A stretch of DNA of 11,065 nucleotides from a virus (lineage: Duplodnaviria > Heunggongvirae > Uroviricota > Caudoviricetes). This document shows positions 3,001 through 9,000 of the stretch, one piece after another (position 1 is the stretch's first letter; each line of letters begins with the position of its first letter). The position numbers are program-made. The stretch lies in IMG/VR virus record IMGVR_UViG_2660238078_000006. One strand, given 5' to 3'.

Positions 3001-6000
3001 AGTAATTACATTATGTGTTTTCATTTATATTAAAGGAAATTGGCAAATGAAAGTGTTTGCCACCCTTCCAATACTTATTGTCGCATTTTCTATGGCAAAA
3101 CCTCAACTGGCAGATTCTGTTCCTCAACTGCCAACACTTGCAACCGGAAACGGGTCAAGGTATTTTGTAAATATTCATATTGCAATTTTTTCATTAATAT
3201 GCGTTTGTTTGTTTCAATGCATAAAGAATAAAACCTTAAAAATATTCTTTAAAATCTATGTTTCAGTCATCCTTATTGCAATGATAAAATTAAACTTTTT
3301 TATAACCCCTCTTCCTGACATGAACTGGTCTCAAGGAGCAGAATTAATAAATAAAGCAAAACATGGAGAAGCCGTCTCATTTACAGTGCTCCCTCCATGG
3401 TTAACTCTTGATTTAATAAAAAAATAAAACTTCACATTAATAAATAACAATGAATCCGCCTCCCTACGTATTCCCGTAGGGAGGCTGTCGTGTTTATAGT
3501 AGCCTGGTAATGCTAAATGCAAACGAACTGGAGATTCCTGCTCCGCTAAGCGTATTGCGCAGGGTCACCCTAAATGTATCTACGCCAATATAAGTAACAT
3601 CACAACTAACTGAATCAGGCGCAGATATAGGTGTTATCTGCACAATATAACCGCTAGCAACTGCTGCGAGCGGATGAGAAAAGCTAACCTCATACACACC
3701 TGTAGCAACCACGTTAACCGATGAAACACCAGTAGCAACGTCGATACTACCATTGGCGTTAATTTTTCCCGAGCGTGTGACTGACAATGCAGAAGCCGAT
3801 GTTGCCTTACTGGTTGTTTCTGTAAAAACACACCCAATGTCAACTACCTCGCAATTAGCTCCTGTTATCCAGTATGGTCGATCTGCACTTGGCTGATAAT
3901 CCCCTGCGCTCTGGAACGTTGTGCCGTTGAGTATGACTGTAACTTTTCCCCCACCTGAGCTTGTTACTTGAATATTAGTGTGCGTGTATCTTGCACTGCT
4001 CACGCGATGAAAATTTCCACCGTTTATAACCACAGTTACAGGGCGCGTCCCAGTATTATCTATAGCAAGGTCTGCCCCCCCGGCATTAGCCTCAAAGTAT
4101 GGGTTGTTTAATACCAAAGCGCACGAACCGTTAAGGCCATTTATGGCTAATTGCGCACCACCTGTACTGGAATCCCCCTGAGTACCATTTCCTTCACAAG
4201 TCAGGCTATTGATAGTTGTACCAGCACCCCAGCGGTCCCCGAGGATACCCCATTCACTGTTCTGACTGCACGTAAGCCTATTTGCAGTTATAGCGTTCAG
4301 TTCAGAATGATTTACGGAGTTGGTAGCACGCCAACCGATACGATTACTCTGCAAGTACACGTTCGTCATGTCGCTCGTGAGCATCGAGTCAGTGCGTAAC
4401 CCTTCCCCGTCAGGGTGGCGGCAGATAACAATGTTTTCAAGACGAGTATGTGCTTTATTCTGCACCAGCATACCGTAACTTCCGGGATTCCCTTTCAGCG
4501 TCATGTTGCCGATGTAGTCATATGCAGCCAATCTCTGACTGTTAAACGCTGCGTCACCTAGCATTTTTACGTTAAAATCAGTAGCTCTACATTCCAGTAT
4601 TGTCTCAGCCATGTTCTCGCCTGAGTAAAAACAGCGGACACCCGGAGCACCTACAAAGTCGGCAGGGTAATCATCATAATTAAGTACCAGAGGAGTGGTA
4701 ACATCATACACCCCTTGCTTTATTTTTAATGTTCCACCGAAAGGCCACGATGTAAGCGGGTCTTGATATATTTCATTTTTTATTGCAAATAGCTCATCTT
4801 GAAGATTTTTCCCGCTATTAGTGCCAATGTAAGTAGCCCCTTCATCAGATTGAAGTAACTGCAGAAGCTGTTCAGGGTCATACTTCAGCAAATTCGGAAA
4901 ATAGAACTGTTGCGAACCATACGCATCATATACAGCCATTGAATGGCCTTGCTCAGTTACAAATTTGGCAATCTGCCCGTTATATACCGGATAACCAGCA
5001 GCGTTAATGATGATTGGTTGAGAAACAGGAACGTGATAACCATCTTCGTTCTCCACATAAACCTGAATCTGGTTTTCAGGATTTACAGGGTCAGTGTCAA
5101 TTTTACCAATATAAATTTTACCATTGGCTACGGCTTTAAAAGAACGAGCCATAGTGAATAGTTGCGAAGGCATGCTTACCACAACATTGGCATTTATTGA
5201 ATCTGTCATTTTAATTTCTCTATATGTTAAGCAAGCAATATTCATTGCTAGCATGTTTTTTGTATAATGAGTGAACTTTATTTAAAGGTGGTTAACATGA
5301 ACTGGAACGAAGTATTCGTATTAAAAGACGATGGACTCCTGTACTGGAGTGACCAATATCTCTCAAGACCCAAAATGTTCAATATCTCTAAAGAAAAGCC
5401 TGCAGGACATATATTCAAGGACAAGAACAGGAAAACATCTTATATAATTATCAGGTATCAAGATAAAATATACGCCGCTCATAGGATAATATGGGAAATG
5501 TTTTATGGTGAAATCCCTTCAGGAATGCAAATTGACCATAAAGATGGTAATGGGTTAAATAATTCAATAGACAACCTGCGTCTAGTTAGTCTCGGTGAAA
5601 ACCTAAAAAACAAATCTAAATACACAAACAATACATCTGGGTGCGCAGGTGTTTCATGGCATAAGACCCATAAAAAGTGGGTGGCATATATTAGCGACGC
5701 AGGGAAGCGCATTAATCTCGGATACTTTAAGAGTCTCGATGATGCAATTGCTGTAAGGCGTGAGGCTGAAAAGACCTATGGTTATCATGAGAATCATGGT
5801 AGGTGATATCTGACATTTCATTGCTCCAGACGAATGATATGATGCAACCATGATGTGATTGCATACCGAAATGGTACTATTGAGTATTTATCCAGTAGGT
5901 TACGATGCCATTCCACCCAACTGGTGAGGCATCAAGGATGTACAGCAAATACGACGAGGCGCAGTTTCACTTGAGACTTCCGCATGAACTCCACGCGAAA

Positions 6001-9000
6001 ATTAAACAGCGTGCGAAGATGAATAACAGGTCGCTGAACTCAGAGATAATTGCAGCGATTGAAGAATCACTGGATAAACAAAACTCTGCATCAGTTTACA
6101 TTGACGATGCAGAGCGTATGGCAGAACAACAATCCGATATGGTTAAGAAAATTGTCTTTGATACGCTCAAAGAGCTATATAAAAAAGACAGCAGCTAACC
6201 ATCAGTTACGGAGGATTTATGCAAAGAGATATGCTGAATATTGCGTTCTACATATTTGGTTTTTGCACGTTCCTGGTGTTTGCGAAGCTATTCTGACAAC
6301 GCATCAGACTTGGCACCCTGAGTCAGGGCGTTAATGGCCTTTTGCGCCTGCTGCATGGCTTTCTCAAACGCTGTTGATCCGCGTGGGGTGTTTGCCATTC
6401 GGAGCATTGCATTTCTGAATGGTTCGCTCTCATAGGCGCGAGTAAGAAGTCCGTAGCTTACTGCTGCGCCAGTTGTCGCCGGGTTCATTGCCGTCCCATA
6501 CCCGATAATGAACGGGATGGTTTGCTGCCCTGTTGGTGTTGTTACTGCCGCTTTTGCTGCCTGCTGAGTGGACTGAAGGTAATTTTTCAATCCTTTCAGA
6601 TAAGCAGCGTCCTGCCCCTTAAATGTGATGCCAGTCTGGTTTTGCAGGATGTTAAGCTGCCGAAGGAACTGGTCAGGGGATCCGCCAGATTTCTCCATCG
6701 CCTTTCCAATGATGCCATTGCGCATTTGCACCCTGCCAACACGACCAACTGAGTTATACAGCGTCTTAATTTCCGATTTGTTCTTGCTGAATAGCATGTT
6801 GTTGACAACTTCCGGCGTCAGGTCGCCTTTCATGAGAACATTCTTCAGCCTGGTATTCTTTAGTTTCGCCGCTTCGTCAGCGTAGACGGCATTGGCCTGC
6901 TGATATTTACGGAGAGTATCGTTGCCAAGATTCTGACCAATGGCACCATTGATATCGTCGGTCATCGCCTTGTAAACGCGCTGAATGGCAGCATCGGAAC
7001 GGTTTGGTAGCACTGGTCTCTCACCCTTCACGTCCATTCTGAACTGGCTGCGTAGATCGCTTAATTGCTTCAAATCCAGATTTACCGGACCATCAGGACC
7101 AGCATTGCGAATAAGCTCATCACGATAGGATTGAAGTTTTGAAATCGTCTCGTTATCAGCGACCTTACCAAGCTTCTGCAGGTTAGATATCTCAGTATCT
7201 ATCTGCTGAATTGCTCTGGCAGGTTGAATGTTGATTCCTGCCATTGCATTCTGTACCTGCTCAAGACGGTTCCCAGCAGCACGACGAATTCCTGATGTTT
7301 TCGCTTTAAGGCTGTCAATAACAACAGCTGGATCATACTCACCGAATTTATCAGCAAATCTCTGCACCAACTGGCTTCTCGCTTCCTGTTGCGTTGCTCT
7401 CATTCCGCTTGTGCCAGCCAGAGGGATATTTTCTGCTGTAGTCTGCGCCATTTTTCCGACGCGGGAAGTTGGTTGTAACAGGTCTGTGGTGTGCAGAGGA
7501 ACTCCTTCACGCTCTGCAAATCTGATAGCCTGCTGCGCTTCTGGCGCGATAGCGCCACGAACGCCACGATAAGCAGCACCTAATCCACGTCCGGCAGCGT
7601 TAATAGCACCGCCAGCAAGTACACCAACGCCTAAATCGGTGGCGAGTGCTTCCGCATCATCTTTCGCACTATTTGCAGCAAGTGATCCAACTGCGTTTTC
7701 AGCGAGAAGGCGAGTTGCCCCCTGAGCAATTCGACCAGCAAGTGTTGGTGCCTGTGCTGCCGCTCTCTCAACGCCAGCAGGAGTGAGGTAAGGCAATGCT
7801 TCAGCAAATACCCTTCCCTCTGTCGTTTGTGGAGTCAGCGCACCTTGCTGAAGGCCAAAGTCCTGCTCTAATCCCTGCGTTGTTACTCGTGGCGCTGGTT
7901 GATATGTCCCATCGCCAATGCCGAGTTTACCGCCAGCCCAAGCCGCCGCGCTCGTTACAGCATCGGCAACTGATGCAGGTATATTTGCCACGTTCACGCC
8001 AGCCTGCACCAGTCCGCGACCAGTCTCTTTTACTGCTTCGCCAAGATCAGACATAAATCCACTTTGCTGTGGTTGTTGCTGTGCTACTGGTTGTTGTGTC
8101 TCCACTGGCTGCACAGATGGCAATGGATAGGCAGCATAGAAAGCTTGCTTAGCCTGCTCTGCATTTTCTCCGGCTTGCGGGGCCACGACTTCATTGAAGT
8201 ATTGCTCCTGAGCCTGCGCTTTTTGTTCTGGTGCTAACGCCTGATACTGTGGAGAGGCGATAACATCTTTCCATGCTTTAGCCATTAATCACCCCATAGT
8301 GAAGAAAAGTTACTGCTGGCTGCTGGCTGTGATACCTGTGCAGGTTGAGATTGCTGCCGCTGAGATTTACCAACATTAACGTTATATTGTTGGTTGTAAT
8401 TGTTGGTGTATTCCTGAATCTCACGAATCGACTGCTGCATAGCCTCCGGGCTTGAATAGTCAACCTGCGGCATCCCCTGAAAATACATCTTCGCTTCTGC
8501 AACGGTGTTAATACCACTGGCCCCCATGTCCCTTGCTGCCGCCACACCCTGATTCTGCATTCTGCCCTGAATACGTTGTGCTGAGTTATATAACTGGCGC
8601 TGCTCTTTTCCTGTTAATCGGCTGCGAACATCAGCACCAATTGCCGGGTTACCTGCGCCGCCGGTCATTCCTGTCATGAAATCGAGAGCAGAAGCGTCTG
8701 CATTTGCGATCGCGTCGATATCCTTCTTCATGGCATAGTTTTGTGCTGATGCAGACGATGTTGCAGGAGCAGCGATTGAACTGGCAGGAACGCGAACCAT
8801 ATTCCCCTCGTTATCGATGCCTTCGTAGAACGCATTAGCCCCAGCGCCGTGAAGTTTCCCGCCTACCGTTACCGTTCTACCATCTGCCAGTTGCACAACA
8901 TTCTCCCCGCCAGCATCAGGACGGCCTCGAACACGAAGATATGTCTTTTGTTGCTCTGGAGACAGGCTGTTGAAATATTGATATTCTTTAACAGATGCAG

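Follow-up and report, generated by a model that had tools for sequence, protein, structure and literature searches.

The DNA stretch analysed here (11,065 nucleotides, IMG/VR record IMGVR_UViG_2660238078_000006; hereafter the window) covers the right-hand end of an E. coli prophage of the P22-like (Lederbergvirus) kind, and its features are listed in Table 1. The tailspike, whose true start reads MTDSINAN, combines a conserved head-binding domain with a receptor-binding domain approximately 73% identical to its Sf101 counterpart. Since the tailspike gene lies on the minus strand, the HNH ORF is on the strand opposite to it, as described in the earlier note. The AT-richness attributed to the endonuclease was modest, with 36.8% GC in the cassette compared with approximately 40–41% in the immediate flanks and approximately 50% in the virion genes. 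No terminator-like site was found on either strand between positions 5100 and 6350; thus, late transcription can still reach the tailspike.

Table 1. Features of the tailspike–gene 16 segment of the window.
Feature	Coordinates	Strand	Remarks
Tailspike gene, 571 aa	3494..5209	-	Pfam Head_binding, 1e-62
Element-linked replacement tailspike 5' end: codons 1-7 and 8 nt of leader	5189..5217	-	
HNH-specific cassette core, 586 bp, 36.8% GC	5218..5803	+	
Inverted repeat GCAATATTCATTGC	5235..5248	n/a	Possible operator or -35-region element
TATAAT preceded by TTG, candidate -10 of the HNH promoter	5263..5268	+	
HNH_3 + AP2 endonuclease ORF, 169 aa, RBS AAGGTGG	5297..5806	+	
Orphaned recipient tailspike start: codons 1-5 and Shine-Dalgarno (GGAGCAATGAA)	5802..5830	-	
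23-bp near-palindrome ATGCAACCATGATGTGATTGCAT in the mnt-tailspike spacer	5842..5864	n/a	
Candidate Mnt operator CATACCGAAATGGTAC	5862..5877	n/a	Proposed by inference
mnt homologue, 86 aa	5938..6198	+	Pfam Arc and Repressor_Mnt
Gene 16 homologue (DNA ejection protein)	6288..8285	-	Right boundary of the 'ant moron'

The product of the HNH ORF matched Pfam HNH_3 with E=2e-20 (72–73 bits against a curated cut-off of 24.8 bits) and PHROG 99 'HNH endonuclease' at 3e-59. Residues H62, D80, H81, N89, N93, N102, and N105 were invariant across 30 homologues, and the region carrying the catalytic-motif residues aligned to the core of I-HmuI. The AP2 match of the protein itself (E~1e-4, 23–24 bits) fell under the Pfam cut-off of 33.3 bits, while Pfam AP2 was matched by 18 of the 30 homologues (best 3.5e-12). 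In the AlphaFold model (pLDDT 90), the C-terminal domain comprised three strands and a helix that superposed on the AP2 domain of AtERF1 (1gcc) with an rmsd of 1.3 Å over 48 columns and matched the AtERF1 and TEM1 AP2 domains at 1.3–1.7 Å. Judged by the homologue matches and this predicted fold, the protein carries a C-terminal AP2 domain despite the sub-threshold score, and the HNH-AP2 assignment of the earlier note was thereby upheld. PADLOC returned only generic 'homing endonuclease' matches for the gene.

The TATAAT of the HNH promoter was invariant in all seven aligned sequences of the lineage, while the rest of the spacer had diverged; a generic promoter scan missed it because a good -35 is absent. 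A motif related to the GCAATATTCATTGC repeat, G.AAT.TT.ATT.C, was also present upstream of HNH in diverged lineages. The upstream ATG at 5267 is an unlikely start for HNH because it overlaps the -10 element. Across 14 intact HNH alleles, 17 synonymous and 7 nonsynonymous variable sites were counted (pN/pS ~0.1), a ratio by which the ORF evolves under purifying selection. It has been considered whether the gene is an inactive relic, that is, a dead endonuclease gene from an old insertion without present function. Two decayed copies (L021 with a 1-bp deletion; E. whittamii L013, truncated and frameshifted) and a frequency of only approximately 2% among E. coli genomes having the region would fit such a relic, but it is very unlikely given an intact ORF in 14 of 15 distinct alleles, the low pN/pS, the conservation of all catalytic-motif residues, and the conserved promoter -10.

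The neighboring mnt homologue was confirmed. Its product exceeded the cut-offs of Pfam Arc (3e-14, 53 bits) and Repressor_Mnt (3e-14, 52.7 bits), as expected for the N-terminal Arc-like ribbon-helix-helix domain and the C-terminal tetramerisation domain of the P22 Mnt family, and was 47.5% identical to P22 Mnt. If translation began at the ATG further upstream, at 5905, the protein would have 97 aa. The region is not a complete P22-type immunity I (immI) region, with arc and ant (and sar) absent beside mnt. When P22 Arc, Ant, and SieA were searched in the window by tblastn, no match was obtained except a cross-match to mnt, in agreement with the earlier note, and the 131-bp spacer between HNH and mnt leaves no room for arc or ant. 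Members of the P22 Mnt family repress the antirepressor promoter Pant through Omnt. The 5-5-5 geometry of P22 Omnt recurs in the candidate Mnt operator, which occupies the equivalent position beside a conserved CTCAATAG and is kept in E. coli and Salmonella versions. The near-palindrome ATGCAACCATGATGTGATTGCAT also occurs in IME10 and Sf101.

In the earlier note, the endonuclease was described as a likely selfish insertion that had taken the place of arc/ant and pushed out part of immI, after which the orphaned Mnt may have acquired a new role, for example in controlling the endonuclease or read-through toward the tailspike. The HNH gene indeed lies where P22 has arc and ant, with mnt on one side and the tailspike on the other, and it is on the same strand as mnt, 131 bp away, with no terminator between them. 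However, a lone mnt adjoining the tailspike without HNH was found in IME10, Sf101, approximately 88 distinct IMG/VR sequences, and many E. coli genomes, and mnt-only 'ant morons' were already reported in ST64T, ST104, and Para1 by Villafane et al. 2008 (PMC2629481). Relatives therefore share the lone-mnt arrangement as a common state, an outcome that the earlier note itself had named as counting against its model. Moreover, the cassette occurs beside intact arc and ant and, elsewhere, without any mnt; the breakpoints fall within tailspike codons 5–7 rather than in immI; and no second copy of the candidate Mnt operator was found near the HNH promoter. Displacement is thus hardly credible, and neither the replacement of arc/ant nor the new role for Mnt was supported. 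Judged by its gene content, the 'ant moron' of the window belongs to the common mnt-only type, which existed before the endonuclease arrived. Many P22-like phages of E. coli and Shigella normally carry mnt alone, and the endonuclease did not bring this about.

The anatomy of the insertion was resolved using the near-isogenic pair L052/L152, in which 612 bp stand in place of 3 bp (codon 6) of an IME10-type tailspike, with 0 differences over 360 nt in the left flank and 1 over 250 nt in the right flank. The corresponding block in the window spans approximately 613 bp (5189–5801), and the breakpoints lie within the first tailspike codons in comparison with IME10 as well. The new codons 1–7 read ATG ACA GAT TCA ATA AAT GCC (MTDSINA) and include an extra Ser codon. 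All 23 HNH+ loci shared this replacement start without variation, and phage HK620 carries the same allele. As the block brings its own leader and seven codons, the essential tailspike gene stays intact. Compared with the native GGAG, the element supplies a weaker ribosome-binding site (AGAG). The recipient start stranded on the other side of the block reads ATG TCA GAT ATC ACC (MSDIT), which is IME10-type, and the HNH stop codon TGA (5804–5806) falls within this remnant.

Among the HNH+ loci, the remnant was of IME10, Sf6, or P22-like type, and mostly it was the start allele usual for that right-hand context in HNH-free genomes. Remnants that fit their contexts indicate that the element entered several different recipients at the same nucleotide. 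In Ec81 and PSJ-07, an IME10-type remnant was paired with an ant context, a pairing rare in HNH-free genomes, and the MB50 remnant was hybrid or P22-like. These atypical cases indicate that crossovers inside the remnant also occur.

The cassette was detected in 15 of 5426 complete E. coli genomes, in a single copy each and always at the tailspike start; with the surrounding region matched by 763 of the 5426, it is present in approximately 2% of the E. coli genomes that contain the region. Tailspike starts of IME10, Sf101, Sf6, and HK620 were 'empty' (without HNH), and no cassette was found in the cultured phage records of the phage collection. The 23 cassette loci adjoin tailspikes of 16 different lengths (571–825 aa) and have at least five right-hand contexts, namely, mnt only, mnt with an extra ORF, mnt-arc-ant, none, and Arc-family with P63C. 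In E. coli 81, NRG857C, PSJ-07, and the diverged L287, the cassette lies between ant and the tailspike beside a full mnt-arc-ant region, and in LD39-1, L019, and Enterobacter L282 and L286 it occurs without any mnt. Thus, the cassette tracks the tailspike 5' end and not immI.

HNH occurred only with the MTDSINAN tailspike start. In an unbiased sample of 80 loci, HNH was present in 3 of 9 MTDSINAN loci and in 0 of 68 others (Fisher p ~0.001), and exact-pattern scans gave HNH in 8 of 16 MTDSINAN loci. HNH homologues at 83, 79, 75, 66, and 64% identity, from Enterobacter ludwigii, Salmonella enterica, and three other samples, hold the same position. All five adjoin a tailspike starting M[TS]DSI.., and a start remnant follows HNH in four of them (degenerate in L282; absent in L287). 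The extra Ser codon was found in the linked tailspike start of 6/6 lineages. A 45% homologue sits elsewhere in its genome. The element-type start without HNH is carried by HK620-type genomes, which could be descendants that lost HNH or relatives of the genome that was first settled.

Copies of the approximately 586-bp cassette were 97.8–99.7% identical across full-immI and no-immI prophages. Nucleotide diversity was 0.2–2.3% in the cassette, 4–7.5% on the head-binding side, and 7–36% on the right side. The gene is polymorphic for presence and absence at one fixed site in otherwise homologous genomes, and the cassette is less diverse (~1%) than its flanks (4–7.5% and above) in diverse backgrounds, as expected of a homing gene. 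The suggestion of a selfish insertion in the earlier note was supported. The HNH gene is probably a free-standing HNH-AP2 homing endonuclease gene, specialised for the tailspike-start site and added to an mnt-only background.

The gene might instead be a passive or domesticated nuclease, captured once at this junction, now shuffled only by the general, very frequent recombination of the ant moron and tailspike modules, and kept for a benefit to the prophage or host, such as exclusion of superinfecting related phages by cutting their DNA. The ant moron is known for rapid flux and for prophage-expressed exclusion genes such as sieA, and the purifying selection on the ORF, a conserved promoter of its own that might be active in lysogens, and the hybrid or atypical pairs of remnant and context, which reflect recombination in the short remnant, are all consistent with such a gene. 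Once the structure has formed, it could also be carried between contexts by ordinary homologous recombination within the conserved flanks. However, diversity falls abruptly on passing from the variable flanks into the cassette, the junction is nucleotide-identical across recipients with native remnants, and the position and the Ser-insert allele are retained across 64–100% protein identity and at least three genera, which are the expected signs of site-specific homing. The PADLOC matches also count against an exclusion gene, being to generic homing endonucleases only. Shuffling without homing is accordingly rather unlikely as the full explanation, and the exclusion and homing roles are mutually compatible.

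For the favored homing gene, cleavage by the HNH enzyme is a prediction, and the target site and the immunity of the Ser-insert allele are predicted from the junction anatomy. HNH would have a promoter of its own, with transcription diverging from that of the tailspike. The enzyme would recognise the first ~10 codons of element-free tailspike genes and would cut or nick near codons 5–6, and the break would be repaired from an HNH+ genome. Homology for repair would be provided on one side by the conserved coding sequence of the head-binding domain and on the other by the start/Shine-Dalgarno remnant of ~25–30 bp plus any shared context. HNH+ genomes would be protected from cutting by the extra Ser codon, the nearby changes, and the splitting of the old site. 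Mnt is independent of the element and probably still regulates itself and a residual promoter of the Pant type directed at the tailspike.

The analysis thus identified a mobile nuclease gene that is rare and tied to the tailspike start in at least three genera. Its anatomy is clean: the insertion lies within an ORF, a surrogate start is supplied, the native start is left stranded, and an extra codon is diagnostic. Should cleavage occur at the place predicted by this anatomy, the enzyme would provide a concrete recombination mechanism at the main host-range junction of P22-like phages and a natural site-specific tool for the tailspike junction. A broader reading, for and against which the evidence appears evenly balanced, is that this lineage (64–100% identical; P22-like phages of Escherichia, Salmonella, and Enterobacter) has the opening codons of an essential virion gene as its homing site, instead of an intron or spacer, with a surrogate ribosome-binding site and seven-codon start and with Ser-codon immunity. 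If so, its breaks could actively drive the exchange of tailspike (host-range) and immunity modules, because the element lies precisely where the fast-changing ant moron meets the tailspike; HNH expressed in lysogens could also cut incoming related phages; and the element would have left its footprint in the well-studied HK620 tailspike, as the unusual start MTDSINAN. As nuclease genes at phage exchange boundaries are already established, the advance is incremental and not fundamental.

Compared with known systems, the window shares with the P22 immunity I region or 'ant moron' (mnt, arc, sar, ant, and sieA; PMC2629481) the slot between gene 16 and gene 9, both Mnt domains, and an Omnt-like element at the homologous position. 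Unlike P22, it is without arc, ant, sar, and sieA, and the DNA-reading strand of its Mnt is QFHLRL, whereas that of P22 Mnt is HFNFRM. The layout is that of the known mnt-only class, with no new remodelling.

A family of proteins with an N-terminal HNH and a C-terminal AP2 domain is found in cyanobacteria and protists as well as in phages (Magnani et al. 2004, as cited in PMC10448857), and ICP1 phages have genes of this HNH-AP2 type, named 'IPA-HNH' (Barth et al. 2023, PMC10448857). The window gene resembles these in its two-domain architecture, in being a free-standing phage gene, and in its position at a boundary of exchangeable modules. It differs in having a canonical HNH_3 domain, whereas the ICP1 type is divergent, and in that its phage is temperate and P22-like, its site is always the tailspike start, inside the ORF, and it carries a surrogate gene start. 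The closest solved relative is I-HmuI (PDB 1U3E), an intron-encoded HNH nicking endonuclease of Bacillus phage SPO1, which matched over the HNH core with a sequence E=2e-5 and a fold probability of 0.99. I-HmuI has different C-terminal DNA-binding modules, and there is no intron in the window.

The seg and mob genes of T4-type phages (SegG, MobE) are intronless and free-standing and are present or absent between homologous genomes. Such genes spread via break repair with co-conversion of flanking markers, and they usually lie between genes and cut the neighboring gene. The HNH gene of the window is likewise intronless and present or absent between otherwise homologous genomes. In contrast to the T4 genes, its block splits the target ORF at codon 6 and makes it whole again by supplying a new start, and the co-conversion tracts at the element appear very short (< ~40 nt).

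The endonuclease gene (HNH) tracks the start of the tailspike gene and not immI, the slot between gene 16 and the tailspike (gene 9) that carries mnt, arc, ant, and sieA in P22. The distribution of the gene was determined with a 581-bp cassette query (5222-5802) taken from the HNH-specific core at 5218-5803. The cassette was detected in 15 of 5426 complete E. coli genomes, in one copy each and at 97.8-99.7% identity, and complete genomes, IMG/VR, and one GTDB contig together gave 23 HNH-positive loci. HNH lay divergently upstream of a tailspike with a head-binding domain in all 23, and the neighboring tailspikes were of 16 different lengths (571-825 aa). 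The right-hand context consisted of mnt only (the window, 23CRST042, PK8568, Tig228, and others), mnt with a 486-bp ORF (M160133, EC1515), the complete mnt-arc-ant set (E. coli 81, NRG857C, PSJ-07), an Arc-family gene with a P63C protein (MB50), or nothing before gene 16 (LD39-1 and the locus L019). Across the 18 distinct HNH-positive haplotypes, the cassette itself showed a diversity of 0.2-2.3%, compared with 4-7.5% for the conserved head-binding region next to it and a rise to 33-36% on the right side. Moreover, certain head-binding regions of HNH-positive loci were identical to those of HNH-free genomes. The earlier note had proposed a selfish insertion that displaced part of immI. The low diversity and the several recipients agree with a mobile block, but the block is tied to the tailspike start rather than to immI.

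The window covers the right end of a P22-like prophage, which continues past it, and runs in the opposite direction to the P22 map. Close relatives, from E. coli and Shigella, are assigned to Lederbergvirus; in a complete E. coli genome that shares this arrangement, tRNA-Arg/yfdC is next to the prophage. The run of 78 N indicates that the window comes from a draft assembly. One IMG/VR contig (L015) showed 100% protein matches to the HNH, Mnt, gp16, and gp20 proteins of the window; in its tailspike the reading frame breaks off at a stop after 384 aa, compared with 571 aa for the window. The third gtr-cluster gene (421 aa, about 30% GC) has many predicted membrane segments and no Pfam match; it presumably encodes a GtrC-type, serotype-specific glucosyltransferase from a novel family.

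Features of the window and of the region around the endonuclease gene
Feature	Position	Strand	Remark
Integrase 3' end	59-523	+	
gtrA, gtrB, AT-rich gtrC-like gene	873-3427	+	
Third gtr-cluster gene	2162-3427	+	
Tailspike	3494-5209	-	
Inserted block	5189-5801		
Inverted repeat	5235-5248		
HNH ORF	5297-5806	+	
Stranded native tailspike start	5727-5816	-	strong Shine-Dalgarno and ATG kept
First five tailspike codons of the recipient	5802-5816		
Near-palindrome, 23 bp	5842-5864		ATGCAACCATGATGTGATTGCAT
Candidate Mnt operator	5862-5877		GTACC-N5-GGTAT, preceded by CTCAATAG, at the position of P22 GGTCC-N5-GGACC
mnt homologue	5938-6198	+	
Small ORF	6219-6296	+	MQRDMLNIAFYIFGFCTFLVFAKLF
Homologues of P22 genes 16, 20, 7, 14	6288-10943	-	
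Assembly gap (78 N)	10279-10356		gene 7/gene 14 homologue region

The boundaries of the block were resolved using a near-isogenic pair of loci, L052 with HNH and L152 without it. The search for such pairs used anchored flanks, and the extra codon shifts the register by 3 nt. The two loci were identical over 360 nt to the left and differed once over 250 nt to the right, and 612 bp in L052 stood in place of 3 bp, tailspike codon 6 (GCA), in L152. Therefore, the element interrupts the tailspike ORF, and a seven-codon start that the element carries makes the ORF whole again, leaving the first five codons of the recipient stranded. At the left junction, all HNH-positive loci share ACAACATTGGCATTTATTGAATCTGTCATTTTAATTT, which reads on the coding strand as a leader followed by ATG ACA GAT TCA ATA AAT GCC (MTDSINA), and variation among them starts about 11 nt deeper in the tailspike. 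At the right junction, the HNH ORF ends in CAT GGT AGG and leads into a truncated copy of a native tailspike start that still has its Shine-Dalgarno sequence, and this remnant contains the stop codon of HNH (TGA or TAA). The remnant is TGATATCTGACATTTCATTGCTCC in the window (IME10-type, MSDIT), TAATGTCTGTCATTTAATTTGCTCC in other loci (Sf6-type), and P22-like or hybrid in MB50. The remnant allele is mostly the start allele naturally paired with that right-hand context in HNH-free genomes, where mnt goes with the IME10-type start and either the ant 3' end or gene 16 with the Sf6-type start. Thus, the block seems to have inserted at one and the same nucleotide in different recipients. A repeat search of 5150-6300 returned only short repeats, probably due to chance, and the diverged duplication of the tailspike start was detectable only through comparison with other genomes. 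Translation from the stranded native start could yield a junk peptide of 29 aa, MSDITYHDSHDNHRSFQPHALQQLHHRDS, whose reading frame is antisense to the 3' end of HNH.

The start allele carried by the block was also associated with HNH. An exact 12-residue pattern of the element-type start matched 16 IMG/VR contigs, eight with HNH, and HNH accompanied an intact IME10-type start in 0 of 115 matching contigs and an intact Sf6-type start in none of at least 120. In a sample of 80 tailspike N-domains picked without using the first 11 codons, HNH was present with 3 of 9 MTDSINAN alleles versus 0 of 68 others (Fisher p about 0.001). In HK620, which lacks HNH, the element-type start is joined directly to its ribosome-binding site. 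The MTDSINAN start without HNH was observed in HK620 (2560-2640 of its locus, L009) and in seven IMG/VR contigs (L037-L044), all in the ant-3'-end context. These genomes either descend from HNH carriers in which recombination between diverged direct repeats of about 20 bp removed the gene, or are related to the genome that originally hosted it.

More distant homologues of the protein, at 83% (Enterobacter ludwigii), 79%, 75% (Salmonella enterica), 66%, and 64% identity, occupied the same position. All five were found in P22-like prophages with differing right-hand contexts, each upstream of a head-binding tailspike and divergent from it; each ended in HGR*, and the linked tailspikes start M[TS]DSI[TN].. 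with the extra Ser codon present. A start remnant followed HNH at four of the five loci (degenerate in L282, none in L287). A 45% homologue sits in an unrelated prophage region, and cultured phage records contained no relative above 60% identity.

The assignment of the protein to the HNH and AP2 families was confirmed. The ORF matched Pfam HNH_3 at E=2e-20; its own AP2 match was weak (about 1e-4, below the curated cut-off), and further support for AP2 comes from the 18 of 30 homologues that matched the profile and from the structure model. In the AlphaFold model (pLDDT 90.2), the C-terminal domain of three strands and a helix superposes on plant AP2 domains at 1.3-1.7 A, and the N-terminal part matches I-HmuI, which was also found as a sequence match. 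NCBIfam contained no matching model, and PADLOC returned solely generic homing-endonuclease accessory models. A terminase-associated HNH protein of the HK97 gp74 type was rejected because the domain type is wrong (HNH_3 with AP2) and terminase is not adjacent; headful packaging in P22-like phages is a further point against it. The ORF is under purifying selection, with 17 synonymous versus 7 nonsynonymous variable sites (pN/pS about 0.1). Two decayed copies were observed, one truncated at 152 aa by a 1-bp deletion in an A-run (L021/L052) and one in a defective E. whittamii prophage (L013), 5'-truncated and frameshifted by a 4-bp deletion. Both fit a selfish-gene life cycle.

In the spacer upstream of HNH, TATAAT is invariant across lineages with a TG upstream, and a G.AAT.TT.ATT.C motif is also kept. 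When 5100-6350 was scanned for sigma-70 promoters and terminators, no terminators were found and promoter-like matches were fewer than in shuffled sequences; accordingly, the candidate HNH promoter was assigned because TATAAT is conserved across lineages and not because of the generic scan. Since RNAalifold predicted no consensus structure for the tailspike-HNH spacer, the inverted repeat is described simply as a conserved motif.

The endonuclease is not the cause of the lone mnt. The Mnt assignment itself held, as the product has both Arc-like and Mnt C-terminal domains and is 47.5% identical to P22 Mnt, and the claimed absence of Arc, antirepressor, and SieA was likewise found, the P22 proteins having no counterpart within the window. 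However, IME10 and Sf101 carry mnt at 97-98% nucleotide identity directly beside the tailspike, without HNH, arc, or ant. The two-piece pattern of an empty site occurred in many of the 763 complete E. coli genomes matching the 1.3-kb region, and the IME10-type start was joined to the mnt-only context in about 88 distinct IMG/VR sequences. The earlier note had held that HNH displaced arc and ant and left mnt an orphan, and had named, as a finding that would speak against this, the same layout as the common ancestral state of close relatives with arc/ant elsewhere in the genome. As that layout is common without HNH and the cassette also lies beside mnt-arc-ant, the displacement was discarded. 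Villafane et al. (2008) named this slot the 'ant moron', described it as in rapid flux, and listed mnt-only versions in ST64T, ST104, and Para1 (PMC2629481). In the annotated Sf101 genome, no antirepressor is annotated elsewhere, apart from a Rha-like regulator.

The mnt-tailspike spacer retains homology to the P22 Pant/Omnt segment, and the candidate operator, present once in the window, is conserved across the versions from E. coli and Salmonella. From these sequence features, Mnt probably still autoregulates and controls a promoter facing the tailspike. The near-palindrome, between the tailspike ribosome-binding site and the candidate operator, is found in E. coli and Shigella mnt-only spacers and absent from Salmonella versions. 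The label 'partition protein ATPase' on Mnt homologues in RefSeq phage records (including P22 mnt itself and Sf101 3104-3397) and PHROG 795 looks like a propagated misannotation. The small ORF, which starts 20 nt past the mnt stop and overlaps the gene 16 3' end by 9 nt, encodes a 25-aa hydrophobic peptide behind a strong GGAGG ribosome-binding site. It is kept in Sf6, IME10, LD39-1, and many IMG/VR loci, with 28 nucleotide alleles and 17 peptide variants whose changes are mostly conservative, and may be an unannotated membrane-peptide moron.

As to how the block moves, the enzyme would recognize the first approximately 10 codons of element-free tailspike genes and cut or nick near codons 5-6, after which repair would copy the block from an HNH-positive genome. 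Homology for this repair may be provided by the conserved head-binding coding sequence on one side and by the start/Shine-Dalgarno remnant of about 25-30 bp, with any shared context, on the other. A break at the insertion point fits because the recipient keeps its own remnant and the conversion tracts are very short; ordinary recombination could also move the block. Under the homing model, carriers would lack an intact target, the old site being split and the new start altered by the inserted codon and nearby substitutions. An exclusion role for HNH expressed from the prophage is compatible with the data as well.

No description of an HNH gene at a P22-like tailspike start was found in the searchable literature, in which subscription papers are thinly covered and an earlier report is possible. 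An element dedicated to this start, its position within the ORF with a surrogate start, and its likely role as the origin of the HK620-type start appear to be undescribed. Already known are the mnt-only moron (PMC2629481), the HNH and AP2 combination as a recognized homing endonuclease family, and the documented occurrence of phage nuclease genes at exchange boundaries (PMC10448857).
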